Below are positions 22,245-43,266 of a DNA stretch of 64,000 nucleotides, one piece after another. The DNA is from Patescibacteria group bacterium (lineage in GTDB: Bacteria > Patescibacteriota > Patescibacteriia > UBA1558 > GWA2-36-10). The notes below the pieces were generated by a model, which saw nothing but the letters and a program-made list of their open reading frames with translations, had not been told where the DNA came from and made no database searches. The stretch lies in the NCBI GenBank assembly GCA_028718865.1, contig JAQUKX010000003.1, positions 33,214 to 97,213 of the forward strand. Reading direction: 5' to 3'. A program made the translations under genes and the position numbers. Every line of letters begins with the position of its first letter. Within the stretch, counting starts at the first letter, position 1.

Positions 22245-22295
22245 TATTGACAAGTTTATTTAAATATGATATAATGATACATTAAATTCCGGCCA
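22245..22295 (+). promoter_or_regulatory. Consensus sigma70-like promoter for the GC-rich ORF 22328-22618.
   Basis: TTGACAAGTTTATTTAAATATGATATAATG (TTGACA-N17-TATAAT), followed by the SD AACAGGAGGGTAATACTGTG. Confidence 0.55.
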
Positions 22296-22327
22296 ACCTT
22301 AGTGTTAGTTAACAGGAGGGTAATACT

Positions 22328-22618
22328 GTGAAGAAAGTCGTTCTTATCATCATCGCGATCTTCGCGCTCCTGCTCGTTTCCGGTTGCGCCGGGACCAATT
22401 CGGTTCAGAACACGCCTGGTAGCAATGGCGTGGCTGGGTTCTGGTCTGGCCTCTGGCACGGCATGATCGCGCCGATCAGCTGGTTAATCTCCCTCTTCAA
22501 CTCCAACGTGAACATCTACGAGGTTCACAACAACGGTGGCTGGTACGACTTTGGTTTCGTGCTTGGCGCCGGGATTCTGGCCAGAGGGAGCCGATCCTCA
22601 CGTAGGCGCGAGCACTGA
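22328..22618 (+). CDS. Small GC-rich (~60%) lipoprotein; a self-contained expression unit inverted relative to neighbouring cassettes.
   Basis: MKKVVLIIIAIFALLLVSGCAG lipobox, GTG start with a strong SD, and a terminator hairpin ACTAGTTGTCCCTAACAACTAGTTTTCTTTT at 22630-22665. Confidence 0.6.
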   Translation: MKKVVLIIIAIFALLLVSGCAGTNSVQNTPGSNGVAGFWSGLWHGMIAPISWLISLFNSNVNIYEVHNNGGWYDFGFVLGAGILARGSRSSRRREH

Positions 22619-22734
22619 ACAAGATCATGGGTTTACTAGTTGTCCCTAACAACTAGTTTTCTTTTACATAAAAAATTTACAACTTTTTTATCTCATATCC
22701 GGTGTTGGGCGATGTTTATGAATTGACAAATTTA

Positions 22735-23148
22735 TTACAGGTTAGTTTCTAAAATTAAATCATAATCTTTGAAACTGTTTTTTCTATAGAAGTTGATGCC
22801 TTTAATATTTTGAGCAGATGCAACTACGCGTAACCTGCTAATGTTTTTCGACTTACTCCAATTAATAAATGATTGGCAAAGTTTTGAACCTATACCGATA
22901 CCTCTGTATCTTTCCAATACAAACGTACTTTCAAGTTCAGCATAATTTAGTATAGACCTATAAGCATCTTTACTATTGACGAGACTGCCCGTTAGATAGC
23001 CTACAATCTCATTATCTATATAAACCACAAAAGCGCAACTATCATTTTTACTAATACATTTTTTAAAATATTCAGTACCATGCTTACTAAATGTCCATTT
23101 ACAATCAATGGTATCATCAAATTCCGCATACTCCTTTTTAAGTAGCAT
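22735..23148 (-). CDS. GNAT-family N-acetyltransferase (cassette ORF).
   Basis: 137 aa; acetyl-CoA-binding motif RYRGIGIGSKL. Confidence 0.75.
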   Translation of the reverse strand: MLLKKEYAEFDDTIDCKWTFSKHGTEYFKKCISKNDSCAFVVYIDNEIVGYLTGSLVNSKDAYRSILNYAELESTFVLERYRGIGIGSKLCQSFINWSKSKNISRLRVVASAQNIKGINFYRKNSFKDYDLILETNL

Positions 23149-23214
23149 TAGGTTTAATTCTTGAATTTTTTTAAATCTTTATTTGTAGCGTCTTTGATTT
23201 CAAATTTCATATAT

Positions 23215-23400
23215 TTATTTGTCAATTTATAAATTTCGCATAACATCGCGATTATCTGAAGTTTCAGCGAAGCTGAAATTTGGGGATTTTTCGCAGGAAA
23301 ATCCCAGATAATCGCTGTTATCTGTCCTGAGCCGAAGGCGAAAGTCTGCAAGACGTGGCGAGGATTTGCGAAGCAAACCGCAGAGTTAATTTGGAATTTG
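23215..23400. repeat. L-type cassette site (long variant).
   Basis: GCATAACATCGCGATTATCTGAAGTTTCAGCGAAGCTGAAATTTGGGGATT...; compare 27905-28005. The track ORF 23154..23351 overlaps it and is judged spurious. Confidence 0.5.
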
Positions 23401-23428
23401 TGGATGGTGGGAAGGTTATTTGGGCACC

Positions 23429-24328
23429 TTATATTAAGGCGATAATCTCTGGAAGATAAAGCAACACAACACCAAAGACAATTAACAAAATTGGAGCAAT
23501 ATTTTTATTAAAATTGTTTTCTACACTTATCTTTATCCCAATTTTGTGAGCAATGGACTCCAAGATTAATACTGCAAATGGTTGTGTTGCTGCTATTGAA
23601 GAAACAATTGTTGCAGGTAATCCTGCCATTGCGAAATAGGTTGTAAATATCCCCAAAAAAGTTAAACTTTCATTGAGCAATGCCCATTTAATATTTTTTA
23701 GCTCTTTGGGAAACCCCAATCTTATCTTTTTATTGAATAAACCGGGCAGTATAATTAAGCCAACACAAATACTGCTTATAGCTATGCCATTTAATTCTGG
23801 CAAGTTATTTGTTGCAATTTTAATAAAGAACTCGTAAAGAGCAACAACAATGATAAGCGAAATAATCATCCACAAAGAAACTTTTAATCTAATTTGTTTC
23901 GCTTTGACAGAAAGAAAAATTACTCCTAATAATATCATACTCATTCCAAAATAGCTTATCAAGGATAATTTTTCGTTAAGGAATAGGAAAGATAAGATTG
24001 CAACAATAATTGGATAAACATAAACAAAACCTATTACATTTGAAACATCTTCTTTTCCTAGCATATAATAATATAGAAAAAATTGGGAGCCAAAAATTAA
24101 ACCTGCGATTGCGGGGAAAAGCAAATCATTTATAGCTATGTTTGTCCAATTAAGAAAAAGAGCTAAAATAATTCCAATTGCTAAATTTACAATTCCTGCA
24201 ACAATTGTAAAACTGAGGGTATTTTTAACTCTATGAGAAACTACAAATTTATCAAGCACATTCATAAATCCCCAAATAAATGGAGAGATTATCGCAAAAA
24301 TTAATGGTAAAAATATGGGTGTTGTCAT
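23429..24328 (-). CDS. EamA/DMT-superfamily transporter (cassette ORF).
   Basis: 299 aa with ~10 predicted TM helices in two repeats. Confidence 0.55.
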   Translation of the reverse strand: MTTPIFLPLIFAIISPFIWGFMNVLDKFVVSHRVKNTLSFTIVAGIVNLAIGIILALFLNWTNIAINDLLFPAIAGLIFGSQFFLYYYMLGKEDVSNVIGFVYVYPIIVAILSFLFLNEKLSLISYFGMSMILLGVIFLSVKAKQIRLKVSLWMIISLIIVVALYEFFIKIATNNLPELNGIAISSICVGLIILPGLFNKKIRLGFPKELKNIKWALLNESLTFLGIFTTYFAMAGLPATIVSSIAATQPFAVLILESIAHKIGIKISVENNFNKNIAPILLIVFGVVLLYLPEIIALI

Positions 24329-24617
24329 TTTCCTCTTTTACAATTAATTGATTTCTTATTTATTAAGCTATCGTAAGGTGCCCACAAATTAGGAGATGGT
24401 GGTCAGGGGTTACAAATTCCAAATTAATTACAGATAACACACCAGGATATCTGAAGTTGCCGAATAAATATCCGTGATAGAATAATTATAACATCACGGA
24501 TATTTAGAGGCAATTTGTAGTGGAACTCAAGAAAAAATAGAGCATAGTATAAAAATGGCCAAAATCAGATAAAAGTATATAAATTTTACCTAATATTAGC
24601 CAATATTTGCCATTTAT

Positions 24618-24716
24618 GCTTGACAGATTGTGGTATATATGGTATCATTATATATTACTTTGGGAATAAGCCTGAAGTAAGTACCTGAACAAAGTTTCAA
24701 TGAAAGGAAGCTGGTC
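24618..24716 (+). promoter_or_regulatory. Promoter and SD of the DGR target gene.
   Basis: GCTTGACAGATTGTGGTATATATGGTATCATTATAT (TTGACA ... TATCAT/TATAT) and the SD GAAAGGAAGCTGGTC-ATG. Confidence 0.5.
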
Positions 24717-25400
24717 ATGAGCAAGACGCAAGTGGTCGGCACGATGTCCGAATGGTCGGGCATTATCCGCGACATGTTCCGTCAGTTCGACGACGGCTCG
24801 TTGACCCTGGCTCACGCCAAGGCCTTCACCGAGCATCGGAACCCTTTCGCCATTTCGGACATCCAGTCCGAGTGGCAGGAGTTCTACCGCAAGTACTTCC
24901 GCATCAGCGTGGACTTCTCGGATGTCTCGATTCCTGCCGATCCCGGTGGCTTTGACCGCGTCATCTTCATCCCCAAGGGGTTGAAGCTCAACGATGTGCT
25001 CAGGGCCATCCGCAAGCAGTTCCCGGCTTGGAGCTACGAGGAGGATCTGGACAAGGACGTCATCGAGAACATCCGCAAGTCGGATCGCAACTACGCGATT
25101 CTGATTCGCGAGCGGGTGGAGGCCGATGAAGAGCTCAAGAACATCTCGGCCAACCAGCTGAAACAGCAGGGCGTCAACGCCATCACCCTGCTGGAGCGTC
25201 TGGTACTCGAGCTGAAGTACTGGTCCGAGACCGGCCAGCATCTCGATGTCAGCAACATCACCCTGTGCGCCGGTTCGCGCAGCCGCTTTGGTAGCGTGCC
25301 GAACGTCGACTGGAGCGCTGACTGCGGCAAGCTCCACATCTACTGGTTCAGCACTGGCCGTGCCAATGGCCGTCTGCGCGCTCGTCAGTCAGTTTCCTAA
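24717..25400 (+). CDS. DGR variable (target) protein with a C-terminal variable region; GC-rich (~60%).
   Basis: 227 aa. The last ~35 codons (…GSVPNVDWSADCGKLHIYWFSTGRANGRLRARQSVS) are encoded by the VR, which matches the TR at 25687-25802 except at TR adenines. The antisense track ORFs 24648..25337, 24752..24955, 25091..25339 and 25246..25434 are artefacts. Confidence 0.85.
   Translation: MSKTQVVGTMSEWSGIIRDMFRQFDDGSLTLAHAKAFTEHRNPFAISDIQSEWQEFYRKYFRISVDFSDVSIPADPGGFDRVIFIPKGLKLNDVLRAIRKQFPAWSYEEDLDKDVIENIRKSDRNYAILIRERVEADEELKNISANQLKQQGVNAITLLERLVLELKYWSETGQHLDVSNITLCAGSRSRFGSVPNVDWSADCGKLHIYWFSTGRANGRLRARQSVS
25271..25388 (+). other. DGR variable region VR1.
   Basis: 118 nt aligned to the TR with 16 substitutions, all at TR adenine positions (A>G ×10, A>T ×5, A>C ×1). 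A GC hairpin TCACCTCTTTCCCTTGAGGTGA lies just downstream of the IMH-like 3' end CTGCGCGCTCGTCAG. Confidence 0.85.
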
Positions 25401-25686
25401 CACTTCCAACTTTCACCTCTTTCCCTTGAGGTGAGATAGGAGTGTGCAATCACGCCCCGTGTGTGTCAATTCGTTTGACGCCCGGGGCTTTCTTTTTATA
25501 TAATAATCTCGGCTAATACAATCGGTCTTGATTTTTCAGGATAGCGATTTGCCATTTCTTTGGAAACTGCTTGTTAAGTTCTGGCTGGATTAAGTCCACA
25601 CATATTACAAACTCTTTGAAGTTTGACGATTAGTAATATTTATTTAATATCACTCGTCGGCCAAGATGGAATTTAGCAAAAATTGG

Positions 25687-25802
25687 GTTCGCGCAACCGC
25701 AATGGTAACGTGCCGAACGTCAACTGGAACGCTGACAACGGCAAGCTCCACATCAACTGGTACAACACTGACAATGCCAATGACCATCTGCGCGCTCGTC
25801 AG
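25687..25802 (+). other. DGR template region (TR).
   Basis: GGTTCGCGCAACCGCAATGGTAACGTGCCGAACGTCAACTGGAACGCTGACAACGGCAAGCTCCACATCAACTGGTACAACACTGACAATGCCAATGACCATCTGCGCGCTCGTCAG. It is rich in AAC codons, non-coding in context, and located just upstream of avd/RT. The track ORF 25666..26085 over it is spurious. Confidence 0.85.
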
Positions 25803-25838
25803 AAGTTTTCGACAAAAAAGTCCCGTTTTTACTCGGGA

Positions 25839-26198
25839 CTATTTGTTTAAATATTTTATCCACCCGCTCGCCATTTTCGAAATTTGCATCATTTTTTCAG
25901 CTAGGAGTAGGTATTTTTTGTCAGCGATTATTTTTAATTCCCACATTAGTCTAGTCAATCTTTTTGCTACTTCAATTTGTATCTTCAGTTTGGCAACCAC
26001 CACAGATTTTTTATCTCTAGCGGTCAAAGCCGCCAGTGTTCCTAATTCCAAACAATCAATGATAATATTTTCAATTTTTTGGTAAAGCCCAAAGCGTTCC
26101 ATTTTGGCAATTTGTTTTCGTCTGGTGTATAATTCCCGATATAAAGTAGTAAGCTCATGAATTATCGGCAAGCTAACATCGTTGGGGGGGGTAAACAT
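25839..26198 (-). CDS. avd: Avd-like accessory protein (four-helix-bundle family), tentative.
   Basis: 119 aa, basic/helical (…LYRELYTRRKQIAKMERFGLYQKIENIIIDCLELG…). Size and position between the TR and RT fit Avd. It is on the opposite strand and overlaps the RT start by ~40 nt. Confidence 0.45.
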   Translation of the reverse strand: MFTPPNDVSLPIIHELTTLYRELYTRRKQIAKMERFGLYQKIENIIIDCLELGTLAALTARDKKSVVVAKLKIQIEVAKRLTRLMWELKIIADKKYLLLAEKMMQISKMASGWIKYLNK

Positions 26199-27158
26199 AG
26201 TAGTCTTTTTTTAAAAATTATTTCTTTAGATAATTTGCTTTTATCATGGCGAGAATTTAAGCGTGGTAAAGCCACAAGGCGTGATATTCAGCAGTTTGCC
26301 TTTAATTTGGAAGAAAATATTTTTTGTCTTCACAAAGAGCTTGAAAATATGACGTATTGCCACAGTCCTTATCAGTCATTTTTCATCCAAGATCCAAAAA
26401 CTAGGCATATTCATAAGGCTGGCGTCAAAGATAGAGTTGTCCACCAAGCTTTATTTAGAGTATTATATCATTATTTTGATAAGAAGTTTATTTTTGATTC
26501 ATATTCTTGCAGGCTAAAGAAAGGTAATCATAAGGCTGTCTATCGCTTGGATAAGTTGATAAGAAAGGCCAGCCTTGATTATCAAAAACCAGTTTTTGCC
26601 TTAAAGTGCGATATCAGAAAATTTTTTGCCAACGTTGACCAAAAAATATTATTGTCTTTATTACAAAAAACTATTAAAGACCAAGATACTCTTTGGCTAG
26701 TTAAAAAAATTATTGATAGTTTTACATGTAGTCAAAATAAAGGTTTGCCTCTGGGCAATGTTACTAGTCAATTATTTTCCAATATTTATCTTAATGAGCT
26801 TGATTATTTTGTAAAACATACTTTAAGGCAAAAGTTTTATATCAGATATTGCGATGATTTTATTATTTTACATCAAGACAAAAAATATTTAGAAAATTTA
26901 GTTGCCACTTTAGCTAATTTTTTGCAAGCTAGACTAAAGTTAGATTTGCACCCTAATAAAATAACAATAAGGAAAGTAAATCAAGGTGTGGACTTTTTAG
27001 GTTATGTGGCTTTGACACGCTATCGAGTGTTGAGGACAAAAACAAAGAAGAGAATTTTGCGTCTTGCCAGTAGTAAAAATTTACAGTCTTATCTAGGAGT
27101 ATTACATCATGCCAATGCTTATGAATTAAAGCAGGTATTGATAAAAAAGATTGTTTAG
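26157..27158 (+). CDS. DGR-type reverse transcriptase.
   Basis: 333 aa; RT motifs HKAGVKDRVVHQAL (motif 2), LPLGNVTSQLFSNIYLNELD (DGR-specific [I/L]GxxxSQ in motif 4), RYCDDFII (YxDD) and GVDFLGY. Confidence 0.85.
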   Translation: MNYRQANIVGGGKHSSLFLKIISLDNLLLSWREFKRGKATRRDIQQFAFNLEENIFCLHKELENMTYCHSPYQSFFIQDPKTRHIHKAGVKDRVVHQALFRVLYHYFDKKFIFDSYSCRLKKGNHKAVYRLDKLIRKASLDYQKPVFALKCDIRKFFANVDQKILLSLLQKTIKDQDTLWLVKKIIDSFTCSQNKGLPLGNVTSQLFSNIYLNELDYFVKHTLRQKFYIRYCDDFIILHQDKKYLENLVATLANFLQARLKLDLHPNKITIRKVNQGVDFLGYVALTRYRVLRTKTKKRILRLASSKNLQSYLGVLHHANAYELKQVLIKKIV

Positions 27159-27299
27159 TTTTTTATATAATAGATAGCTCTATTTTTTCTTGAGTTCCAC
27201 CAGATATCCGGTGATAGACGATGTCACGACTATATAAAAAAACAAAAAAGTTTAGAAAAATATCTAAACTCTTTTTATTTGTATGAGTATTATTTTAGT

Positions 27300-27545
27300 A
27301 TGCAAGTAGTCGTGATTTCTGTCTATCAGTCGTGCGTATGCGACGTCCCGAAACGAGCTTTGCGGTAAAATAGTGCGGAGCACATCGCAAAGGCGAGTAG
27401 AGGGATGTAGGCTAAAGCTCACACATACTAAAAGAATAAAATTAAAAGTGCCTAAGCTAATTTAAGCACTTTTAACTATAAATTTCAAATGTAGTATAGG
27501 TGTAAGCTAAGCCGCATACGCGGTGTTGTGCGCTGTAATAAAGTC
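27300..27545. repeat. Compact complete cassette site (L half plus central hairpin plus R half).
   Basis: CGTGCGTATGCGACGTCCCGAAACGAGC ... GAGTAGAGGGATGTAGGC ... AAAAGTGCCTAAGCTAATTTAAGCACTTTT ... GCCGCATACGCGGTGTTGTGCGCTG. Confidence 0.65.
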
Positions 27546-27546
27546 C

Positions 27547-27831
27547 TTATTTCTTTTGGTTCAGAAATTCTTTATATAGTTCTTGAATTCTAGTCGCTTT
27601 TTCAGCAGCCTCAAGTATTTCTTGTTGTCTACCCTCTTTTAATGTATTGGCAATATTTTCAGGTCTTAGAGAATCATTCATATAATCATTAAGATATCGT
27701 CCCACTATATCACTACCAGCTTCTAATGCCTGGTGTAATTTTTCTGAATCAGGAAATTCAGCTTTTACTCTTTCAATGAAATCTTGCGGGTAGCCAGACT
27801 CGCCCTCTGTTTTTGGTTTTTCCATGTTCAT
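27547..27831 (-). CDS. Hypothetical protein (cassette ORF).
   Basis: 94 aa, acidic, no motif. Confidence 0.45.
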   Translation of the reverse strand: MNMEKPKTEGESGYPQDFIERVKAEFPDSEKLHQALEAGSDIVGRYLNDYMNDSLRPENIANTLKEGRQQEILEAAEKATRIQELYKEFLNQKK

Positions 27832-27904
27832 AATTTTTTTCGTTAATTATTAATTCAATATGTATAATATATTATTATATTTTAAATGTAAATAGGACTT
27901 TATT

Positions 27905-28005: not shown

Positions 28006-28020
28006 TAGTAAAATAAATAT

Positions 28021-29290: not shown

Positions 29291-29430
29291 CGTGTTTTCC
29301 CTTATTTTAAGGGGATTTTAATTATTGACAAAATAACTAAAATATGCTATTATTATATGTTATGTGGCGCCGATGCCGTAACCCCCGCCTCAGGGATTGA
29401 GGTATATACTTCTCAGGAGGTTACTACACC

Positions 29431-29853
29431 ATGAAGCGCATGACCTACGTTCTTTCGATCGTGATCCTGCTGATCTCGTCCATGGCCTTCGCGGCCAGCC
29501 ACCCCATCGTCAACAAGGACGACACCGCCAAGGTTCCGAGCTGGGACTGGGTCGACGTCCTGAACCAGGAAGTCGTCTACAGCGGCAACAACGAGTTCAC
29601 CTACGGCGAGACCTGCGGCATCGAGTGCGGCGGCACCGTGACCGTCATCGGCGAGGTCGACGAGGGCAACGTCCTGGTACGCTACACCAGTCCCCATGGC
29701 CAGACCTACGGTACGCCTTGTCCCTCCGGCATCATCTTCCAGCTCTCCAAGGAGCGCTTCACGCTGATGACGGCGGAGTACCTGGCCAACATGAAGGCCG
29801 AGCAGGAGCACCGGCAGAAGATCGCCAACATCATCAAGGAAGCCGAAGGCTAG
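29431..29853 (+). CDS. GC-rich (~62%) secreted protein; inverted self-contained unit.
   Basis: Signal peptide MKRMTYVLSIVILLISSMAFAAS. Upstream TTGACA at 29327 and SD CTCAGGAGGTTACTACACC-ATG. Terminator TGAGCAAGTCATAAAACTGCTCACTCTTTTTTT. The overlapping track ORFs 29397..29873 and 29413..29877 are GC artefacts. Confidence 0.65.
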   Translation: MKRMTYVLSIVILLISSMAFAASHPIVNKDDTAKVPSWDWVDVLNQEVVYSGNNEFTYGETCGIECGGTVTVIGEVDEGNVLVRYTSPHGQTYGTPCPSGIIFQLSKERFTLMTAEYLANMKAEQEHRQKIANIIKEAEG

Positions 29854-30126
29854 GCCATCGGCGCCAGACCTGAGCAAGTCATAAAACTGCTCACTCTTTT
29901 TTTACTCAAAAATAAAATAACCTCGTAAGAGATTATTTATATAGAAAGGGGAAACACGATTTCACATAACATCGGGATTAAGGGAAGTTGCGACCGCAGG
30001 GAGCAATTTGGGAAAATGCCGAGCTGAGGCATTTTCCGTTTAAGCCCTGTTATACGCCCCGACGACTGAAAGGAGGAGAGCGCAGCGTGGTTCGACCGAA
30101 GGGAGAAAGTCCGCCGTAGCCCGCCG

Positions 30127-30609
30127 TTAAAGCGCAGAAATTTTGTCTGGAAGATGGTCAATTCCGCCAAATTCTTTAATGGGAATAGATGTTATTTTTT
30201 TCTTAATCTCAGGTTTTACATGAGTGATAGTCATTTCATCTATTCCGCCGATAGATTCGCAGTCATCTTCAATTAGAACATCCGGAATAATTCTTTCTGC
30301 GACATCTTTGTATTCTTCATTTTTTTGGCGGAATAGTAATTGACCATCTGGAAACTTAAATTTCTTGAGAACATTTTGTATTTGCTGGATTTCTTCCGGT
30401 TTTCTGCGAGAAGTCAAATACAAAATTTCTGCGCCATCATTTTTCCAATTCTGCAATTTTTTAACCGCATTACCAACAGGAACATATGACTTATAATCAT
30501 GCACAGATTCTTCTTTATTTTCAACTTGTTTGACAATTTCATTGCGAGTATGACCTACTGCATTTTTGTGCATGATTATTGTTCCCTCTGTAAAGATTAG
30601 TATTCTCAT
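30127..30609 (-). CDS. Hypothetical protein (cassette ORF).
   Basis: 160 aa, no confident motif. A degenerate site remnant lies at 29940-30125. Confidence 0.45.
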   Translation of the reverse strand: MRILIFTEGTIIMHKNAVGHTRNEIVKQVENKEESVHDYKSYVPVGNAVKKLQNWKNDGAEILYLTSRRKPEEIQQIQNVLKKFKFPDGQLLFRQKNEEYKDVAERIIPDVLIEDDCESIGGIDEMTITHVKPEIKKKITSIPIKEFGGIDHLPDKISAL

Positions 30610-31159: not shown

Positions 31160-31456
31160 CCTGATCTAGAATTCCAGTTTTCTAAATCAGGATGGCGTTT
31201 ATCCTAGTTGTTAACAACTAAGCTGGACATTTGACCTATTATCATTTAGAATGACAATAGGGTACTAGCATCTGGAAATGCTAGGTCCAATAAATTATAT
31301 CTCCAAAAAGGTTCCAATATCTGGAGCCTTTTTGGCTATTTTCAGTCTAACATGCTAGAAATTTTTTGTCAAATTTTGCGATTAACAAAAAGTTATTATT
31401 CATTTGTTATTCACTAGATATTGACAAATTTGAAACATATGCTATACTTATGACAT

Positions 31457-31849
31457 ATGGATAAAAAAAGTTTAAATTTACAAAAATTTCCTGGTAAAGG
31501 AACTAAGATTAGTAGAAAAATTAGTATTACAAAGTCTAATTCCTTTGGAATACCCCCTACTTTTTATAAAGAAAACGATCTAGACAGTTATGATTATGCT
31601 AATTTGTATTATGACCCAGGTAATAAAATCATAGGACTGGAATTTTCTAACAATAGTGAGCCTGGTTCATTTAAGTTAACTAGGCATGGAACTGGAGATA
31701 AAACTAGTGCTAGTTTTGTCGCCCGTTCGTTTTTTAAGACGTATAATATAGATTCTAAAAAGTATTATGGAAGATATTCTCCAGACGATATTATGCAAGA
31801 TGGAAATAAGATTTTTTTGATAGAAATTAAAGAAAGGGACGATAGTTAA
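31457..31849 (+). CDS. Hypothetical protein with its own TTGACA-N17-TATACT promoter.
   Basis: 130 aa. Promoter at 31426-31455. Divergent from 30968-31159, with palindromes (TAGTTGTTAACAACTA) in between. Confidence 0.45.
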   Translation: MDKKSLNLQKFPGKGTKISRKISITKSNSFGIPPTFYKENDLDSYDYANLYYDPGNKIIGLEFSNNSEPGSFKLTRHGTGDKTSASFVARSFFKTYNIDSKKYYGRYSPDDIMQDGNKIFLIEIKERDDS

Positions 31850-31969
31850 TCTAAATTTGTGACAAAAAATTTCGTCAAATGACGGAGTTTTTTATTTGTT
31901 AAAATAAATAAAAATCAAATTCTTGTGATTACCAAAAAAGCTGGTTAAAAACCAGCAAAGGAAAAATGT

Positions 31970-35481: not shown

Positions 35482-35484
35482 TTA

Positions 35485-37736: not shown

Positions 37737-37764
37737 ACAATTTTATTTAGTTGCTTTTCGCTAT

Positions 37765-37870
37765 TTCAGCTAACAGGCCAGCGTATGCGAAGTCGTGATT
37801 GAGCCTATGTGGTAGAATTCGCGAAGCGACCACGTAGGCGAAAGAACGATTTGGGTGAGCGAGCTAAGAC
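37765..37870. repeat. L-type cassette half-site.
   Basis: CAGCTAACAGGCCAGCGTATGCGAAGTCGTGATTGAGCC...CGAAAGAACGATTTGGGTGAGCGAGC. Confidence 0.6.
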
Positions 37871-38151
37871 CAACGATTATTTTTATATTCTCTAACTCTT
37901 TTAATAAATTCTTGTATATCATCTTTATGAATTAGTAATTCATGGTACTCGCTAGGATCCCCTTGAAAACGTAAATCGTCACCTAGACTTGGGTATCCTT
38001 CAATTTTTCCATTCACATAACGACTAGCGTATTGTGATTGTTGTCGCAGTAGATCAAGAGCAATATCGCCAAAATGTACATATCCATTTTCATCAACATC
38101 AAATAGTTTACCCTCAATTTCTATTTGATCTTTAGGTTGTTCAAATTTCAT
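37864..38151 (-). CDS. Hypothetical small protein (cassette ORF).
   Basis: 95 aa. Confidence 0.45.
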   Translation of the reverse strand: MKFEQPKDQIEIEGKLFDVDENGYVHFGDIALDLLRQQSQYASRYVNGKIEGYPSLGDDLRFQGDPSEYHELLIHKDDIQEFIKRVREYKNNRWS

Positions 38152-38159
38152 ATTTTTTA

Positions 38160-38210
38160 TTGTTAGCTCGCGAACCGCATACGCGGTGTTGTGCGCTGTC
38201 AGATGTATTG
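38160..38210. repeat. R-type cassette half-site.
   Basis: GCTCGCGAACCGCATACGCGGTGTTGTGCGCTG; itself a ~33-bp imperfect palindrome. Confidence 0.6.
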
Positions 38211-38227
38211 AATTTTAAAAATTTGCA

Positions 38228-38331
38228 GCTCTTGACATATTATTAGATATATTATATTATAATATATCGGCTTTAATGGCCGAAACCCAGCTACGAGGCG
38301 GTCGTAGCAGTTCTTTCAAAGGAGTTGTCAC
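38228..38331 (+). promoter_or_regulatory. Consensus promoter and SD for the GC-rich ORF 38332-38859.
   Basis: CTTGACATATTATTAGATATATTATATTATAATAT (TTGACA ... TATAAT) and CAAAGGAGTTGTCAC-ATG. Confidence 0.5.
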
Positions 38332-38859
38332 ATGACGGCCAAGAATGCTGTCGCCGACGATGTCCTCGGACGGATCACTCGTAAGCTTCTGGACTTGTTG
38401 CGTCGAATCCTTGAGGGTTCGGTGGAAACCACTCGGGCCTCATTCTTCATCCAGCGTGCAATCGAGAATCCGCCGACCCCCAAGACCCCCGGTCCGGGAG
38501 AAGCGGGCATCTACGTACTCGAGAGCTACTGGTGCTACGACAAGGCGAACTACGATTTCGCTACGATCAGCTTGGAGTGGGGTGGTGAGCCTACTTGGTT
38601 TTTCGAAGATCTTCTCAAGGAAGACATCTCGGAGGACGCTAGGGGCTTTTTGCTGCGCACGCTTCGGCGGATTTACGAAGCGCAGATCCCAGATCATGGT
38701 CGGCGGAGGATGATGCGGCTCTATCGCGTCTCTTACCGCAATTGTCTGGGAAATTTCGAGGGTTCTCTGGGTCGTCCACTTCGTGACCTTCATTTCTCGC
38801 TTGAGCCTGTTTGTGAGTTCGACGAACAAGGCGAACCCCTTCCCGTCGGAACACTGTAG
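38332..38859 (+). CDS. GC-rich (~58%) hypothetical protein; inverted self-contained unit.
   Basis: 175 aa, no signal peptide. The overlapping ORFs 38345..38713, 38440..38871, 38639..39028 and 38328..38510 are GC artefacts. Confidence 0.55.
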   Translation: MTAKNAVADDVLGRITRKLLDLLRRILEGSVETTRASFFIQRAIENPPTPKTPGPGEAGIYVLESYWCYDKANYDFATISLEWGGEPTWFFEDLLKEDISEDARGFLLRTLRRIYEAQIPDHGRRRMMRLYRVSYRNCLGNFEGSLGRPLRDLHFSLEPVCEFDEQGEPLPVGTL

Positions 38860-38939
38860 TCTCAAGTACAAGGCAACATGATATCGTTCCCGCCGAGTAG
38901 CGTAAGCAAAAGGCGGGTTTTTTATTTGTATAAAATTTT

Positions 38940-39180
38940 AGATTAAGAAAATACATCTGATTGCGTACAACAGTCAGGCGTATGCGATGTCCCGAACGAG
39001 CTTTGCGGTAAAATAGTGCGGAGCACACCGCAAAGGCGAGTGAGGGATGTAGGCTAAAGCTTACACCTATTATATAGTAAAATTAAAAGTGCCTAAGCTA
39101 ATTTAAGCACTTTTATTCTTTCTTTACAAGCAAACTCTAGTGTGAGCTTAGCCGCATACGCGGTGTTGTGTGAAGTACAT
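38940..39180. repeat. Compact complete cassette site.
   Basis: TGCGTACAACAGTCAGGCGTATGCGATGTCCCGAACGAGC...GAGTGAGGGATGTAGGC...AAAAGTGCCTAAGCTAATTTAAGCACTTTT...GCCGCATACGCGGTGTTGTGTGAAG. Confidence 0.65.
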
Positions 39181-39248
39181 GTTTTCCTTAGAAATTGTTT
39201 TATCAAATTTACTAGAAAATCCGATTTTGTTTTTAAAGATAGGTTATT

Positions 39249-40502
39249 TTATGCCCCAAAAGCAAATATTTGTTGTTGTGAATATGTGGGTTCTTCTATT
39301 TCTTCTTCAATCTCACCATTTAACATTTTTATTAAGTTGGTACCTATGTGATAGCCAAGATTTACTGGCACGGCATTGCCAATTTGTTTATATTGTTGAG
39401 AAACTGAGCCAGAAAATTTCCAATTGTCTGGGAATGTTTGTATTCTTGCATATTCTCTCACAGTGAGAGGCCTTGTTTCTTCTGGGTGACATCTCTCTGT
39501 TTGTTTTTGTGCGGGGCTACAAGTTAAAGTCAATGAAGGTTCATCCCAAGATAGTCTTCTTGCCATTCCAGTTTTGCCACCGCCCATATAAAAACTTGCC
39601 CCCATGTATTCTTTCTGTAAGTTTTCCGGTAAATCTCTCCAATATCCACCTGGTGGTATAAGTTTTAGAATTTTTTTCTTTTTTTCAGGGTACTCTTGTC
39701 CTTCAGATTTTGGACATTTATCAAAAGCTTCTCGTAGTGAAATTATATAGTCTTTTTCTTTTGGGAATACTATCGGAATATTTAGATCATTTCTAACGCC
39801 TATAATAATTAGACGCTCTCTTTTTTGCGGAACATCTAAATATTGGGAACGGAGGACTTTGTATTTTACCTTATAACCAATTTCTTCTAAAACAGAAATC
39901 ATAGTTTTTAAAGTTCTTCCATTATCATGAGTTAGTAAGCCCCGCACATTTTCACCAATAGCTATTTTTGGCTGTACTTCTTTTACACATCTGGCAAATT
40001 CAAAAAACAATGTTCCTCTGATATCTTCAAAACCCATTTTTCTTCCAGCGTATGAAAAAGTTTGACAAGGAAAGCCGCCCTGGACAATATCAGCTTGTCC
40101 TTTTGTAAATTTTAAATTACGAATGTCATCTTCAATTACATTCCAATGAGGTTTGTTTATTCTTAAAGTTTGGCAGGCGTGTTTATCATATTCATTTAAT
40201 AGAACGTGTTGAATGCCCGCATTTTCCATTCCTAATGCAGTGCCCCCAGCTCCAGCAAATAACTCAATAGCGGTGTAAGGGGATGATTCTTTATTTTTTA
40301 AAATTTTAAATTTATTGCTTTTGGTTCCTTGTGTTTTATTTTGTACCCGTTTGATTTCTTCTAAGCTAAAAATGCGGGCATTTTTGTCATCCCTAAAAGA
40401 TTTTACAAGGCCTCTTTTGTCCCAACGCCTTATTGTATCGACTGAAATGTTTAGTAGATTTGCTGTTTGACCAGCAGTAAAATGTTTTTGTTTATTTTTC
40501 AT
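39249..40502 (-). CDS. DNA (cytosine-5)-methyltransferase with an N-terminal MerR-like HTH.
   Basis: 417 aa; N-terminal QTANLLNISVDTIRRWDKRGLV; MTase motifs LFAGAGG (I), GFPCQTFSYAGR (IV), ENVRGL (VI), QIGNAVPV (X). Confidence 0.85.
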   Translation of the reverse strand: MKNKQKHFTAGQTANLLNISVDTIRRWDKRGLVKSFRDDKNARIFSLEEIKRVQNKTQGTKSNKFKILKNKESSPYTAIELFAGAGGTALGMENAGIQHVLLNEYDKHACQTLRINKPHWNVIEDDIRNLKFTKGQADIVQGGFPCQTFSYAGRKMGFEDIRGTLFFEFARCVKEVQPKIAIGENVRGLLTHDNGRTLKTMISVLEEIGYKVKYKVLRSQYLDVPQKRERLIIIGVRNDLNIPIVFPKEKDYIISLREAFDKCPKSEGQEYPEKKKKILKLIPPGGYWRDLPENLQKEYMGASFYMGGGKTGMARRLSWDEPSLTLTCSPAQKQTERCHPEETRPLTVREYARIQTFPDNWKFSGSVSQQYKQIGNAVPVNLGYHIGTNLIKMLNGEIEEEIEEPTYSQQQIFAFGA

Positions 40503-40567
40503 ATAAAAAATGATAGAGGATATCTATCATTAGTATATCATAATAACCACTGCCTATGCAAAGGTTA

Positions 40568-41275
40568 TTATGTGGAAAAAGCCATTTGGAATAATTTAAA
40601 GTATTCCCTCATTTCTTTTTGGCTAAGATTATATTTATGTTTGTCCATTATAACCTTTGGCAATACTTCAAATAATTCTTGTAGAGCCTTTTCTCTTCCG
40701 GTTGCCAGCGCATAAAAACTAACGCCATCTATAACTCTTATTTTATTGTTGGAAGGGCGGCGTTTTCCATTCTTTTTATTATCTGAAGGCACGAAGGGCT
40801 TGTCATATTTTTTCTTTCCTTGTGGTATGATCTCTACAAAGTAACCAGTATAACCACTATATCTTTCCATTTTTAATTTTGATTTTATTGAATCATAAAT
40901 CTCAACTTTATGGTTGCCTTTTGTAGTATTAAATTTATTTTTTACTTCCGCAATAATTTTCATTTTTTCATTTATGACGTCTAAGCCGCCCCCTTTACCT
41001 AAATTTTGCCAGTCATTAACAGAACCTAAAATATCTTGGTGAAAATCACCAATAGCATTTTGCATTGTTTTTTGAATTTGTCTAGCTTTTTCTAATTCCA
41101 GCCAGTCTTTACAAGATATTGAGTGAGTTACACCATGAAACAAGGCCGAAAAAGGGTCTATTACATTTTTATACAATTTTTTTTCTGCGTCATTTTCTGC
41201 AGCATCTATTACTGTAATAACTTTTTTTACTGCAGCGCATAGATCTTTGTCTGATATAAATTTTAGATAAGGCAT
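40568..41275 (-). CDS. Candidate type II restriction endonuclease, partner of the C5-MTase.
   Basis: 235 aa directly downstream of the MTase in the same cassette. Possible PD-(D/E)xK arrangement GLDVINEKMKIIAEVK. Assignment is by context only. Confidence 0.4.
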   Translation of the reverse strand: MPYLKFISDKDLCAAVKKVITVIDAAENDAEKKLYKNVIDPFSALFHGVTHSISCKDWLELEKARQIQKTMQNAIGDFHQDILGSVNDWQNLGKGGGLDVINEKMKIIAEVKNKFNTTKGNHKVEIYDSIKSKLKMERYSGYTGYFVEIIPQGKKKYDKPFVPSDNKKNGKRRPSNNKIRVIDGVSFYALATGREKALQELFEVLPKVIMDKHKYNLSQKEMREYFKLFQMAFST

Positions 41276-41389
41276 GGGTATTTAAAAAATTATTTACTAA
41301 AGATATTATAGCTTAATTACTATATTAAATAAACAATTAAAAAAAATCGGATTTTTAATATTTCAAGCTTAATGATTTACTTAGGAAAA

Positions 41390-41510
41390 CATGTATTTCA
41401 TACAACAGACAAGCGTATGCGAAGTCACGAAGTGAGTGAAGGGGCTATAATTTCGGCAGAGCCGAGCCCCGAAATGAACGAGTGATTTGGGTGAGCGAGT
41501 TAAATATTAT
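41390..41510. repeat. L-type cassette half-site.
   Basis: TCATACAACAGACAAGCGTATGCGAAGTCACGAAGTGAGTGAAGG...GAACGAGTGATTTGGGTGAGCGAG. Confidence 0.6.
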
Positions 41511-41761
41511 TGTTGTTTTATTTTAGTTTTCCCTAATTTACTTAATAGCTCCGCAATAAATCCGGATAATATTCCCACAATAGCTCCTTTTAGGAGTATT
41601 AACCAATTAAAATTATTACCTTGGAATTTTAATGCCAAAGAAATGATAGCTCCAATAATAATGCCCAATGTCAGTCCGCCCCACACTGCATTTTTTGATT
41701 TCCAATACATTAATAATAATATGATTGCTATTACGCCTAATATTATCCAAATTGTGTTCAT
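41507..41761 (-). CDS. Small membrane protein (2-3 TM).
   Basis: 84 aa; MNTIWIILGVIAIILLLMYW... The antisense ORF 41487..41783 is spurious. Confidence 0.45.
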   Translation of the reverse strand: MNTIWIILGVIAIILLLMYWKSKNAVWGGLTLGIIIGAIISLALKFQGNNFNWLILLKGAIVGILSGFIAELLSKLGKTKIKQQ

Positions 41762-41777
41762 GTTTTTATTTAAATTT

Positions 41778-41822
41778 ATTTAACTCGCGAACCGCATACG
41801 CGGTGTTGTGTGATGTTTGAAC
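41778..41822. repeat. R-type cassette half-site.
   Basis: ACTCGCGAACCGCATACGCGGTGTTGTGTGATG. Confidence 0.6.
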
Positions 41823-41828
41823 CCTTTT

Positions 41829-42680
41829 TTATATTTTTTTAATATGATTATTTTCTAATACATATTCAGATTCGAAATTGAAGACATTTTTAGGAAGTGG
41901 ATTTTTAGCAAAGGGATTATGGACTAATACTACCCGTTTACCCAATTTTTCATTTACAAGATTGATTAAATGATCAGTGCAGTAGATTATTGCTGAGATT
42001 TCTTTATGACTATTATTGCAAAAATAGGTTGTGTCAATTTCAATACCATTTTTCTTTTTTATTTTAGGGCGCAGTGAGTAGCCAGATTCTTTTGTTTTTA
42101 AATTTATTTGTTGATGCCCAACTGCAAAAACGGCACTGAGGATAAGAGGAAATCCAGGGTCAATATGTTGTGTTTCATATCTATTTATAGCAATAATAAA
42201 TGGTTCATTATCTTTTACTTGTTGGTTTAAATATTTATTGATAAAAATATTATATTTTATATCTATCGCATTAGTTATTCTAATGATCATTTGTTCTTCT
42301 GGTAAATCTTGACACTGGATTTCTGACAGATCTTCAGCTACATACATTTCGTCTACAGCGTCATTTCCTCTTGATGCAGTAGTTGTTTCACACCAAGCTA
42401 TTGAGTCTTCAATTTCGAATTTAATATCAGGGCCAGAGTTTGATTTAGAATATATTTTTATTTTTTGATCAAGAAATATACATGCAAGATACATTTCCCA
42501 TAATCTTTGATGAAATTGATTTCTGGTTTCAATTAAAAAATTATCATCAGCATAGGGGTAATATTTTTTCCAAAGATTTTCAATAAAAATACGAAAATAT
42601 TCTCTTTCCTTTTCATCTCGGTTGAAGATATAATTTTTATCTTGTGCTGATTTATTGTTAAAAAAGGGTTCAAATTTCAT
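41829..42680 (-). CDS. Hypothetical protein, 283 aa (cassette ORF).
   Basis: Its start codon is the CAT of the L-site CATACAACAG; on the minus strand this reads GTTGTATGAAATTTGAA, i.e. the start overlaps the GTTRRRY-like core. Confidence 0.5.
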   Translation of the reverse strand: MKFEPFFNNKSAQDKNYIFNRDEKEREYFRIFIENLWKKYYPYADDNFLIETRNQFHQRLWEMYLACIFLDQKIKIYSKSNSGPDIKFEIEDSIAWCETTTASRGNDAVDEMYVAEDLSEIQCQDLPEEQMIIRITNAIDIKYNIFINKYLNQQVKDNEPFIIAINRYETQHIDPGFPLILSAVFAVGHQQINLKTKESGYSLRPKIKKKNGIEIDTTYFCNNSHKEISAIIYCTDHLINLVNEKLGKRVVLVHNPFAKNPLPKNVFNFESEYVLENNHIKKI

Positions 42681-42822
42681 ACAACAGACAAGCGTATGAG
42701 AAGTTGACCGTGGAGTAGCTATGATAAAATTATATCATCATAGCTACGAACGGGCAATTTGCGAAAACCAGCCTTTTTTGGCTGTTTTTCCTCATACGCG
42801 GTGTTGTGTGATGTCGAATTTT
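42678..42822. repeat. Compact complete cassette site (shortest, ~145 bp).
   Basis: CATACAACAGACAAGCGTATGAGAAGTTGACCG-[hairpin ATGATAAAATTATATCATCAT]-...CCTCATACGCGGTGTTGTGTGATG. Confidence 0.65.
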
Positions 42823-42864
42823 CTTAATATAAAGGCCATTATTTAGGGGAATTTTTATTATTTT

Positions 42865-42966
42865 TAAGATTGACAGAATGTAGTATTTATGATATAATAC
42901 ACTATTCGCCAAAAATAGACTAATTCTGGCTATTGGCGTGTACACCACAGTCAGGAGGTAAGAAAG
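42865..42966 (+). promoter_or_regulatory. Consensus promoter and SD for 42967-43266.
   Basis: GATTGACAGAATGTAGTATTTATGATATAATAC (TTGACA-N17-TATAAT) and AGTCAGGAGGTAAGAAAG-ATG. Confidence 0.55.
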
Positions 42967-43266
42967 ATGTACGGACCTCTTTTTCAAATCAGTGACGAGC
43001 TCGTTTGGAAGGACGAGCCTGCCCCAGGGCACGAAGAGGCTGGCCCCTTCAAGGTGGCCACTGTCGAGAACAACAACGACCCTGATGCTTGCGTATGCGG
43101 TGCATCCCGCAAGAACGGTTACATTCACTACGACGACGTCGAAGAAGGTGACTGCTGCGGTGAACTGCCGGCACAGTGGGTGACGATCACCTGCAACGGG
43201 ATCATCGTCAAGAACCGTGATGGCTCTGACGCCGTCTTCTGCTCTGACTGGTTCCGCAAGGCCTGA
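42967..43266 (+). CDS. Small GC-rich (~58%) Cys-rich protein; the cassette nearest the recombinase, inverted.
   Basis: 99 aa with 7 Cys (CVCG...CCGE...C...C). A palindrome CCCGGGTTAGAATAGGGTCTC follows the stop. The ORF 42992..43183 is spurious. Confidence 0.55.
   Translation: MYGPLFQISDELVWKDEPAPGHEEAGPFKVATVENNNDPDACVCGASRKNGYIHYDDVEEGDCCGELPAQWVTITCNGIIVKNRDGSDAVFCSDWFRKA

Follow-up and report, generated by a model that had tools for sequence, protein, structure and literature searches.

GC-rich, predicted autonomous gene modules in and around an integron-type cassette array of a Patescibacteria genome include two targets of a diversity-generating retroelement

GC-rich genes within and outside the cassette array

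The window, that is, the whole stretch of 64,000 nucleotides of Patescibacteria DNA analysed here, contains an integron-type cassette array with at least 14 pairs of attC-like arms between 19.6 and 42.8 kb (for example, the R''/L''...L'/R' arms at 42676..42818). The tyrosine recombinase of the array (43467..44366, + strand, divergent from the cassettes) scores above the cut-off of the XerA/integron-integrase model and under that of the IntI subfamily. The window as a whole has a GC content of 39%; the background of ~33% that the initial annotation had assigned to the genome holds for the array only. Core genes in the window have 40-46% GC and a GC3 of 0.34-0.50; for cassette genes the values are 28-35% and 0.15-0.26. 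The eight genes that had been singled out at 50-62% GC are indeed outliers, with 53-61% GC and GC3 of 0.62-0.91.

The antisense placement of these genes within the array was confirmed: all five in-array GC-rich genes are on the + strand, whereas 22 of the 24 AT-rich array ORFs are on the - strand (Fisher p = 1.8e-4). A near-perfect TTGACA-N17-TATAAT promoter had been ascribed to each of the eight, and this holds for seven, with the site located 50-80 nt upstream of the ORF; 12384-13112 has none of consensus type. Perfect (12/12) matches occur at only two sites in the 64 kb, 22247 and 42870, and 11/12 matches were found at 24620, 29325, 38232 and 53588, with a 10/12 match at 6911 on the - strand. 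As read from the sequence, the Shine-Dalgarno (SD) motif is of the AGGAGG type in three genes only, AAGGAG in three and AAGGAA in two. A clear terminator hairpin followed by a T-run was found for six of the eight and a weak one for 29431 and 12384. The other cassettes are mostly promoterless, as had been stated, with the exception of the AT-rich reversed ORF 31457-31849, which has its own 11/12 promoter and a terminator.

Module 1 (+ strand) consists of a 12/12 promoter with a TG-extended -10 box (22247..22275), an ORF (22328..22618; 57% GC, GC3 0.75) for a 96-aa lipoprotein of family phrog_30702 with the lipobox LVSGC, and an intrinsic terminator (22635..22667; 9-bp stem and T-run). In module 3 (+), a TTGACA-N17-TATTAT promoter with TG (29325..29353, 11/12) precedes an ORF (29431..29853; 61% GC, GC3 0.91) for a 140-aa secreted protein with a signal peptide, an SH3-like barrel and a long C-terminal helix. 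Module 4 (+) has a TTGACA-N17-TATTAT promoter (38232..38260, 11/12), an ORF for a 175-aa protein without a signal peptide (38332..38859; 56% GC, GC3 0.62) and a cccgcc...ggcggg terminator with a T-run (38888..38925) that is kept in the related locus L090. Module 5 (+), the first cassette, adjoins attI/intI; its 12/12 promoter with TG (42870..42898), ORF (42967..43266; 57% GC, GC3 0.69) and terminator (43283..43316) serve a 99-aa Cys-rich protein with ~20 related clusters, some of which form repeated domains inside giant proteins. Outside the array, module 8 (53588..53925, +) comprises an 11/12 promoter (53588-53617), an ORF for 68 aa (53674-53880; 53% GC, GC3 0.71) and a terminator (53886-53925). 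The gene at 12384..13112 (+; 53% GC, GC3 0.62) encodes a lipoprotein with a Peptidase_C39_2 domain and, having no consensus promoter, is a weaker member of the set. The two remaining genes are described in the next section.

The description of the products as mostly secreted, lipo- or Cys-rich was overstated: two are lipoproteins (22328, 12384), one carries a signal peptide (29431) and one is Cys-rich (42967), whereas neither the latter nor the other four GC-rich proteins have a signal peptide. Each GC-rich gene would constitute an autonomous monocistronic module. It starts with a sigma-70 promoter close to consensus that has an extended -10, continues with a leader of 50-80 nt, often with a hairpin at its beginning, and with the SD and ORF, and closes with an intrinsic terminator. 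Such modules are predicted to be expressed without the array promoter, and the copies in the array could therefore lie antisense. The other proposal of the initial annotation, that such autonomously expressed cassettes form a class of their own, is supported, and the class extends beyond the integron.

A diversity-generating retroelement with one target in cis and one remote

The GC-rich genes 24717-25400 and 6134-6820 are paralogous and encode C-type-lectin-fold variable proteins of a single diversity-generating retroelement (DGR), a result new to this analysis. The template repeat (TR), accessory protein Avd and reverse transcriptase (RT) are located at 25686-27158. The cis target module (+ strand) starts with a TTGACA-N17-TATCAT promoter with TG (24620..24648, 11/12) and a 5' leader (24655..24716) with a 10-bp 5'-terminal hairpin (z -2.2), kept in the paralogue and in the related locus L001. 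The ORF (24717..25400; 59% GC, GC3 0.82) encodes a 227-aa protein of the C-type-lectin/FGE fold, and its 117-nt variable repeat, VR1 (25272..25388, +), differs from the TR at 16 positions, all 16 of them TR adenines. The module terminator (25453..25497, +) is overlapped by a promoter-like site at 25475 (11/12), which could drive transcription of the TR (25686..25802, +; 33 adenines). Avd is encoded at 25839..26198 on the - strand (phrog_3206, E 6e-13; 36% GC) and the RT at 26157..27158 on the + strand (RVT_1; phrog_1423, E 1.5e-100; 31% GC).

The remote target module occupies 6012..6911 on the - strand, with a promoter running from 6911 down to ~6884 (10/12), a leader hairpin (z -3.6), an ORF for 228 aa (6134-6820; 57% GC, GC3 0.77), VR2 (6146-6262), in which 28 of 33 mismatches to the TR fall at TR adenines, and a terminator (6012-6064). 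The two paralogues have the leader and the 3' end in common; the six remaining GC-rich genes show no VR/TR relationship. The DGR cassette of the array would rewrite the C-terminal 117-nt VRs of both genes, one in cis and the second 18 kb off, by adenine-specific mutagenic retrohoming.

A clade of DGRs, clade 2, is restricted to Patescibacteria (PMC8144416). The system in the window shares a C-terminal VR on a CLec/FGE fold, adenine-specific differences from the TR, and Avd plus RT with the DGRs that diversify Mtd (Bordetella phage BPP-1), TvpA (Treponema denticola) and TaqVP. Unlike those, it is itself flanked by attC-like arms within a cassette array and has, besides the cis target, another at a distance; its target genes stand 10-27 GC points over the genome and the RT, an excess of which we found no mention in the DGR literature searched.

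GC excess and the shared unit among relatives

The DGR-target homologue exceeds its flanks in GC in 74 of 74 genomes (mean +10 points, maximum +27), and in 43 of 56 loci no other ORF of 150 aa or more reaches its GC3 (median z 3.3). It also exceeds the adjacent RT in 37 of 37 loci (52.2% vs 35.9%, with flanks at 42.5%). At these loci, GC rises abruptly from the start codon and declines within ~100 nt of the stop. The cassette of locus L012 is collinear with the window DGR cassette, with 85% nucleotide identity overall and 87% in the RT; the target ORFs are only 74% identical, and 58% at third positions, yet GC3 is still ~0.75-0.82, which indicates persistence rather than transient import.

Other families behave similarly. 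Homologues of 29431 are GC-positive at nine of nine further metagenome loci (+3 to +18), with about +16 and +7 points in L007 and L004. A homologue of 38332 stands at +9 points in L091, and homologues of 42967 stand at +11 and +10, with promoters of 11-12/12. The GC excess is confined to the ORF, lies mostly at third codon positions and recurs throughout Patescibacteria. Given this family-wide recurrence, GC-richness appears to be a persistent trait, unlike the fading signature that a recent import would leave; the excess looks like a lasting feature rather than a gain from a high-GC host.

Between locus L001 and the window, similarity is limited to 24612-25506 and 6912-6136, and synteny does not extend into the flanks; module 4 aligns to L090 over its full span, from the -35 box through the terminator. 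Judging from these alignments, the block that moves between genomes is exactly the promoter-to-terminator unit, as in a phage moron. In ~1.2 Mb of Patescibacteria loci, which were picked for carrying a DGR target and are a non-random genome sample, GC3-outlier ORFs carry a promoter of at least 11/12 in 31% of cases, compared with 4%, and for terminators the figures are 52% and 20%. With target homologues left out, the link persists (10/46 vs 42/1095, p 2e-5).

What maintains the GC excess

We consider it probable that these genes belong to a Patescibacteria-wide class of autonomous modules, predicted to be strongly expressed, in which ORF-limited GC3 enrichment is actively maintained. A directional force would hold the module ORFs 10-27 GC points above the genome; we infer that this force is selection, for stability or expression, acting on mRNA or codons where genes are expressed very strongly, with GC-biased gene conversion at often-exchanged alleles as the main alternative. 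Translational selection of the ordinary kind is weak here, since GC3 reaches only 0.43-0.52 in the genes for ribosomal proteins L32 and S16. Promoter score and GC excess are weakly correlated (rho 0.30, p 0.012), a relationship confounded by host AT-richness. Within the family, GC1 and GC2 climb with GC3 (slopes 0.15 and 0.12), which agrees with a general pressure towards GC, biased gene conversion included, no less than with selection. Under the conversion scenario, which we regard as unlikely, frequent exchange between paralogues or strains, or with cDNA at the VR, combined with biased heteroduplex repair, would raise GC without selection on expression. The 74% identical target ORF inside an otherwise 87-95% identical window/L012 cassette does look like a recombination patch, sharply bounded at the leader and past the VR, and the genome holds two paralogues with a common leader and 3' end. 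Moreover, the vls antigenic-variation locus of Borrelia, driven by gene conversion, is a GC-rich island far above its very AT-rich replicon. However, GC rises from the start codon on, whereas the homologous leader and promoter remain AT-rich; conversion tracts would cross this boundary unless selection held the leader AT-rich, and single-copy, non-DGR families have this excess too. The likeness to vls lies in a hypervariable surface-protein gene, templated sequence replacement and GC far over the genome, but vls, in another phylum, undergoes segmental gene conversion from silent cassettes without a reverse transcriptase, and the excess in Patescibacteria is common to non-variable families too.

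A recent gain from high-GC donors, possibly the host of an episymbiont, with GC as an unameliorated foreign signature, had been suggested by the initial annotation and is unsupported, the distribution of homologues speaking against it; we judge it more doubtful still. The labelled homologues of the DGR targets and of 29431 are exclusively from Patescibacteria, in none of the 74 genomes does the DGR target fall to flank GC or lower, the RT inherited with it is AT-rich in 37 of 37 loci, and high GC3 outlasts the saturated synonymous divergence between L012 and the window. In GC, the window copy of 29431 also surpasses its counterpart in a Moraniibacteriota genome of 51-53% GC. Import is thus already weakened for three families. 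Codon usage does lie far from that of core genes and of cassette genes (A3 0.07, C3 0.43 vs 0.26 and 0.21 in core genes), and dinucleotides differ as well (distance to core genes 212 vs noise of 35 +/- 11), but the latter gap is mostly a by-product of the former, since core proteins recoded with module codon usage largely reproduce it (83; self-recoding baseline 57). Integron cassettes are acquired DNA by nature, and the 22328 family has members on Vibrio and Pseudomonas replicons as well as in phages. The phage homologues are native in composition, as is the nearest 38332 homologue (74% aa), which lies beside an IS66 transposase in a 57% GC contig. A high-GC source is therefore plausible for these single genes, and import from GC-richer sources may explain some members. 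As for the DGR itself, adenine mutagenesis spilling over the whole target, for instance through read-through templates, might erode coding-strand adenines; two of the eight genes are targets, with very low A3 (0.03-0.035). This explanation is very improbable and is contradicted by parity with the RT gene: A3/T3 outside the VR is 0.77 in a set of 80 homologues and 0.76 in the RT gene, T3 being depleted in parallel so that no adenine-specific signal appears, and the six genes without a VR/TR relationship would not be covered. The least credible reading is an assembly chimera or a non-coding RNA mistaken for genes. Structured RNAs often form GC-rich islands within AT-rich genomes, and these regions are open on both strands; against this, the + frames match the GC1/GC2/GC3 pattern, a lipobox and signal peptides are present, conserved families have confident AlphaFold2 models, and an Rfam search gave no match. 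Homologues exist elsewhere for five of the six protein families and independent assemblies carry identical junctions, so neither chimerism nor chance ORFs can account for the genes.

The module class resembles phage morons, independent promoter-gene-terminator units in prophages such as HK97 gene 15 (Cumby et al. 2012, PMC3594210). Common to both are an own promoter and terminator, GC unlike that of the neighbours, discrete spread and expression (here predicted) apart from the surrounding operon. In contrast to morons, the modules reside not in phage but on Patescibacteria chromosomes, both within integron-type cassettes and between core genes, and deviant GC, which in morons is read as a mark of transfer, is here a family-wide, ORF-limited and persistent excess. 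Promoter-bearing, inverted cassettes are also a feature of sedentary chromosomal integrons, for example the toxin-antitoxin cassettes of Vibrio superintegrons, which share with the modules attC-like bounds, an orientation opposite to the array and an own promoter. Instead of a two-gene toxin-antitoxin pair, each module carries one gene, for a small secreted, lipo-, Cys-rich or lectin-fold protein, and the array recombinase scores below the IntI subfamily cut-off. The modules are, furthermore, strongly GC3-enriched and present outside integrons as well.

GC-rich single-gene modules in and around an integron-like array

The window has an overall GC content of 39%, with the value of ~33% initially given for the genome applying to the array only, and contains a 16S rRNA gene and tRNAs. 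Its genes fall into three compositional classes: core genes with 40-46% GC (GC3 0.34-0.50), cassette genes with 28-35% GC (GC3 0.15-0.26), and eight genes with 53-61% GC (GC3 0.62-0.91). Five of the latter lie in the array (22328-22618, 24717-25400, 29431-29853, 38332-38859 and 42967-43266) and three outside of it (6134-6820 on the minus strand, 12384-13112 and 53674-53880). All eight open reading frames (ORFs) singled out in the initial annotation are indeed GC outliers, and their codon-position pattern fits the assigned frames. The antisense orientation of the in-array genes was likewise confirmed: all five are on the plus strand, versus 22 of the 24 AT-rich array ORFs on the minus strand (p = 1.8e-4).

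Perfect TTGACA-N17-TATAAT sites occur only twice in the 64 kb, at positions 22247 and 42870, in each case preceding a GC-rich gene. Sites matching at 11 of 12 positions precede four others (24620, 29325, 38232 and 53588) and a 10/12 site lies upstream of 6134-6820, whereas the scan of the 64-kb window yielded no matching site for 12384-13112; the near-perfect promoter ascribed to every gene is thus found in seven of the eight. A Shine-Dalgarno sequence (SD) accompanies all eight, as annotated, and the intrinsic terminators assigned to each are clear in six and weak in two. The leaders are 50-80 nt long, and those of 24717, 6134 and 38332 start with a hairpin that is clearly more stable than shuffled sequences (z -2.0 to -3.6); the hairpin in the 53674 leader does not (z -0.4). 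The description of most products as secreted, lipo- or Cys-rich proteins is true of only four of the eight. From its sequence, we would guess the product of 12384-13112 to be a C39-like peptidase lipoprotein, at the level of its domain. Exact-sequence look-ups of two window proteins returned no match. Reading the proteins as a defence system was rejected, with no PADLOC match for any of the eight and nothing above the cut-off in NCBIfam, and so was reading the GC-rich genes as structured RNAs, with no Rfam match at gathering thresholds or E <= 1.

The array spans about 19.6-43.4 kb and extends leftwards of a tyrosine recombinase gene (43467-44366, plus strand, 299 aa) as more than 20 mostly minus-strand ORFs. 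Between these ORFs stand repeated imperfect palindromes bearing attC-like arms (R''/L'' and L'/R', each type occurring at least 14 times); the attC-like sequence at 42676-42818 folds at z -7.8/-8.0 versus shuffled sequence. The recombinase scores 234.9 against NF040815 'XerA/integron integrase' (cut-off 220) and 205.6 against the TIGR02249 integron integrase model, below its cut-off of 265. The array may be an integron of non-classical type; the literature searched yielded no description of integrons in Patescibacteria genomes. Arms flank 22328 (22113/22694), 38332 (38178/38960), 42967 (42793/attI 43385) and a complete diversity-generating retroelement (DGR; 24430/27204), and 29431 shares one inter-arm interval with ORF 30127-30609. 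None of the five in-array genes is a promoterless ORF oriented with the array promoter, as an integron cassette would be; all are antisense and have their own promoter.

The remaining cassettes are AT-rich and mostly promoterless, as initially described. As an exception, a reversed cassette with 30% GC (31421-31893) holds an ORF (31457-31849, plus strand) that is served by a dedicated 11/12 promoter and terminators. Therefore, the GC-rich genes are not alone in being autonomous and antisense. Elsewhere in the array, the cassette ORF 21341-22045 has a 93-nt sequence repeated three times in tandem, with copies one and three identical, and encodes a secreted repeat protein. A single inter-attC interval (39249-41275) holds two minus-strand ORFs, 39249-40502 and 40568-41275, of which the former presumably encodes a C5 cytosine methyltransferase, judging from its sequence; if so, the interval is probably a restriction-modification cassette.

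Phage morons carry their own promoter and terminator, deviate in GC content and spread as a unit (PMC3594210). The modules described here resemble them in all three respects: they are single genes with their own promoter (7 of 8) and terminator (6 clear, 2 weak), and their composition is unlike that of their neighbours (53-61% versus 28-46% GC). They differ from morons in that their setting is not a phage. Instead of lying between conserved phage or prophage genes, they neighbour integron-type cassettes or core genes (Ldh, TrpRS, FtsZ and others). Only one of the proteins matches a PHROG, and scans of viral sequences gave no relatives for the products of 29431 and 53674.

A diversity-generating retroelement with two targets

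Two of the GC-rich genes, 24717-25400 and 6134-6820, are paralogues (67% aa identity), and the last, C-terminal 117 nt of both are variable repeats (VR1 and VR2). The template repeat (TR, 25686-25802), the gene for the accessory protein Avd (25839-26198, minus strand; phrog_3206 'Avd protein of DGR', E 6e-13) and a DGR-type reverse transcriptase (RT) gene (26157-27158, plus strand; RVT_1, E 6e-20; phrog_1423, E 1.5e-100) are found nearby. Mismatches to the TR are located at TR adenines in 16 of 16 cases for VR1 (Fisher p 6e-11) and in 28 of 33 for VR2 (Fisher p 5e-17), and the VRs lie at the C-terminus of a CLec ligand-binding fold. Because the RT, Avd, TR and adenine-specific VR1 and VR2 differences are all present, we read the element from its sequence as a canonical DGR with one cis and one remote target. 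It is only for the DGR targets that a function is established, namely, that of diversified ligand-binding proteins. At the 3' end, where an IMH and a hairpin element would be expected, the GC-rich sequence CTGCGCGCTCGTCAG is common to the TR, VR1 and VR2, which diverge beyond it, and a hairpin follows VR1. The layout with bAvd is repeated in another locus, L003, and viral relatives of the lectin domain have no RT within 8 kb.

The complete DGR, including target, TR, Avd and RT genes (24430-27204), is enclosed by attC-like arms of the array, and a collinear cassette with 85% nucleotide identity over 2.9 kb adjoins an intI homologue in another Patescibacteria genome (locus L012). Thus, integron-type cassettes appear to be the form in which the DGR moves. 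A 23-nt REP-like palindrome, TCATTCCCGCGAARGCGGGAATC, is present in five copies in the window (2985-3007, 5923-5945, 6925-6947, 7116-7138 and 7503-7525), with 0 expected by chance, and four of the five are grouped around the remote DGR-target module.

GC excess in related loci

To compare the DGR targets with their surroundings, we fetched 80 genome loci of this family, 74 of which had enough flanking sequence. The target was GC-richer than the surrounding 10 kb in all 74 (mean +10 points, 36 above +10, maximum +27), and none of the sampled genomes had a target at or below its own GC content; there is thus no visible native reservoir. Among ORFs of at least 150 aa, the target had the highest GC3 in 43 of 56 loci (median z 3.3), and its GC3 is related to that of the neighbours by GC3(target) = 0.40 + 0.55 x GC3(neighbours). 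The target also exceeded the adjacent RT gene, with which it is co-inherited, in 37 of 37 loci (52.2% versus 35.9%, with flanks at 42.5%). Averaged over 16 loci, the GC profile runs at 0.25-0.39 upstream, steps up to 0.48-0.52 at the start codon and returns to 0.36 within ~100 nt of the stop. DGR targets in Patescibacteria are therefore systematically GC-richer than their own RT and genome, which bears on their expression, exchange or repair; no description of GC-rich DGR targets was found in the literature searched.

Comparison of the window cassette with that of L012 by segment showed 93-95% identity in the flanks and leader, 87-91% in TR, avd and RT, and 74% in the target ORF, where third positions are only 58% identical. 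Nevertheless, both targets have GC3 of 0.75-0.82, next to RT genes with 30-31% GC. With so much turnover, neutral synonymous sites would have drifted toward the host bias. The 74% identity of the non-VR part of the target ORF (24717-25271 versus L012 4838-5392) has sharp edges at the leader and past the VR, so that this part was either swapped by recombination or evolves much faster than its surroundings. Co-divergence of RT and target across loci was uninformative, with nearly all RT identities at 50-58% (Pearson 0.25, Spearman 0.08).

The excess extends to other families, here named after the start of the window ORF. Members of the 29431 family have 50.6% versus 34.4% GC in one locus (L007) and 58% versus 51% in another (L004), and the difference is positive in all nine further metagenome loci (+3 to +18); one copy (L118) is AT-rich yet has a perfect promoter. 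In the 42967 family, the values are 51% versus 40% and 54% versus 44%, with promoters of 11-12/12, and one copy is followed by an attC/attI-type motif as in the window; a metagenome scan found no relatives of the 42967 protein. For the 38332 family, 45% versus 36% GC was observed in L091.

The shared unit is the module itself. In another Patescibacteria genome, L001, similarity to the window is limited to 24612-25506 and 6912-6136, running from the -35 box through the whole terminator without synteny on either side, and the L001 module is located between the Ldh and TrpRS genes. Similarly, the alignment of the 38332 module with its nearest relative (L090, 74% aa identity) runs through promoter, leader hairpins, SD, ORF and terminator. 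In L122 (positions 1-1800), two promoter-to-terminator modules stand in tandem, the first with a 42967-family gene and the second, directly downstream, with another consensus promoter and an ORF of 208 aa. Copies of the 99-aa, Cys-rich 42967 domain also occur, 4-14 per protein, within giant proteins of 1,600-6,950 aa (P0143, P0146, P0147, P0153, P0154 and P0156), presumably located at the surface; the small 42967 protein thus corresponds to one isolated unit of the kind repeated in these very large proteins.

To assess the generality of this class, we compared GC3-outlier ORFs (z > 3) with other ORFs in ~1.2 Mb of Patescibacteria loci, all chosen for carrying a DGR target. In these loci, a promoter of at least 11/12 was found upstream of 31% of the outliers versus 4% of the other ORFs, and a terminator downstream of 52% versus 20%. 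With DGR-target homologues excluded, the link to promoters persists (10 of 46 versus 42 of 1095, p 2e-5), and the corresponding terminator counts are 20 of 46 versus 224 of 1095; many of the small outlier ORFs are probably not genes. Examples encoding small secreted proteins or lipoproteins are L001 11959-12549, L053 4465-4809 and L059 5008-5553 (GC3 0.95). Collectively, these data support the view that the modules are moron-like units that occur across Patescibacteria both within integron arrays and elsewhere, that their ORF-limited GC3 excess is persistent, and that two of those in the window are DGR variable-protein genes. The distinct class of autonomously expressed cassettes, which the initial annotation offered as its alternative reading, is thereby supported and generalised beyond the array; the literature searched yielded no account of such a class.

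Origin and maintenance of the high GC content

The reading first preferred, recent import from a high-GC donor, possibly a host, is not supported. Homologue clusters numbered 208 for the DGR target and 8 for the 29431 protein, and every credible label among them was Patescibacteria (Moraniibacteriota, Komeilibacteria, Parcubacteria, Yanofskybacteria and others), an outcome that had been named in advance as speaking against a foreign donor. A native composition was seen for 38332, whose relative in L090 sits in a contig of 57% GC beside an IS66 transposase, and was absent for the DGR targets (0 of 74); for 29431, the GC-richest host genome has a less GC-rich copy. Members of the 22328 family (phrog_30702) are also found in Cellulophaga phages, where their composition is native, and on replicons of Vibrio and Pseudomonas. 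Individual genes may thus have been imported from GC-richer sources, but such import cannot explain the whole class, and the expected decay of a foreign signature is not seen between the window and L012 targets, which retain their GC3 at 58% third-position identity. Codon and dinucleotide usage do differ from those of the host, as a foreign origin had been expected to show: the dinucleotide distance between GC-rich and core genes is 212, and that between unrelated GC-rich genes of the window and DGR targets of 22 other genomes is 55. However, core proteins recoded with the codon usage of the modules gave a distance of 83 (self-recoding baseline 57), indicating that the signal is mostly codon usage, and we therefore rejected it as independent proof of foreign origin or of a common donor.

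The codon usage of the modules is shifted overall toward G or C endings (A3 0.07, T3 0.20, G3 0.31, C3 0.43), and GC1 and GC2 climb slightly with GC3. Erosion of adenines over the whole target by spill-over of DGR mutagenesis was rejected because A3/T3 is equal in the non-VR part of the 80 targets (0.77) and in the RTs (0.76). Ordinary translational selection is unlikely, since the ribosomal-protein genes L32 and S16 are little biased (GC3 0.43-0.52), core genes prefer TTT, TAT, AAT and AAA, and in the modules G-ending codons are also favoured for K, E and Q. Promoter score and GC excess are weakly correlated (rho 0.30). Two candidate forces are left. GC-biased gene conversion at frequently exchanged alleles would fit the patch-like divergence of the target ORF between the window and L012, and we consider it improbable. 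Selection acting on the mRNA of stand-alone genes with very strong expression fits both the ORF-limited GC step and the high-expression design, and we tentatively prefer it over conversion. Selection on the message could act, for example, through resistance to AU-directed RNases or toxins, or through escape from silencing of AT-rich DNA. The fuller proposition is that Patescibacteria keep a dedicated set of moron-like single-gene modules with constitutive and very strong expression, including those for DGR-diversified lectin-fold receptors, small secreted proteins and lipoproteins, and that such selection keeps their ORFs 10-27 GC points above the genome; we regard it as doubtful at present.

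If true, the organism's most important surface and interaction genes could be recognised by an ORF-limited GC3 excess combined with a consensus promoter. Most Patescibacteria have not been cultured, and annotation is lacking for the majority of their small secreted and surface proteins. If the signature (ORF-limited GC3 excess, consensus extended -10 promoter, leader hairpin and terminator) marks autonomous, strongly expressed genes, candidate interaction factors could be picked straight from genomes. Moreover, atypical composition, usually taken as recent horizontal transfer, is here a stable property of a gene class, which calls for caution in composition-based transfer calls in AT-rich genomes.

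Three further segments of the window are GC-rich. Between attC arms at 20757 and 21157, ~290 nt (20805-21095, 51% GC) contain no credible ORF and have pairing ends (aggggatga...tcatcccct); this segment, with no Rfam match at E <= 1, is a candidate structured-RNA cassette. A non-coding-looking segment at 29937-30175 (51% GC), with no Rfam match, separates the 29431-29853 terminator from the stop codon of ORF 30127-30609 (minus strand) and includes 'gggagaaagtccgcc'. Finally, at 50546-50990, a TTGACA-N16-TATGAT promoter is followed by a ~420-nt GC-rich leader, without an Rfam match, upstream of an 849-aa ORF (50992-53541), and this segment is possibly a leader RNA or regulatory element of a new type.
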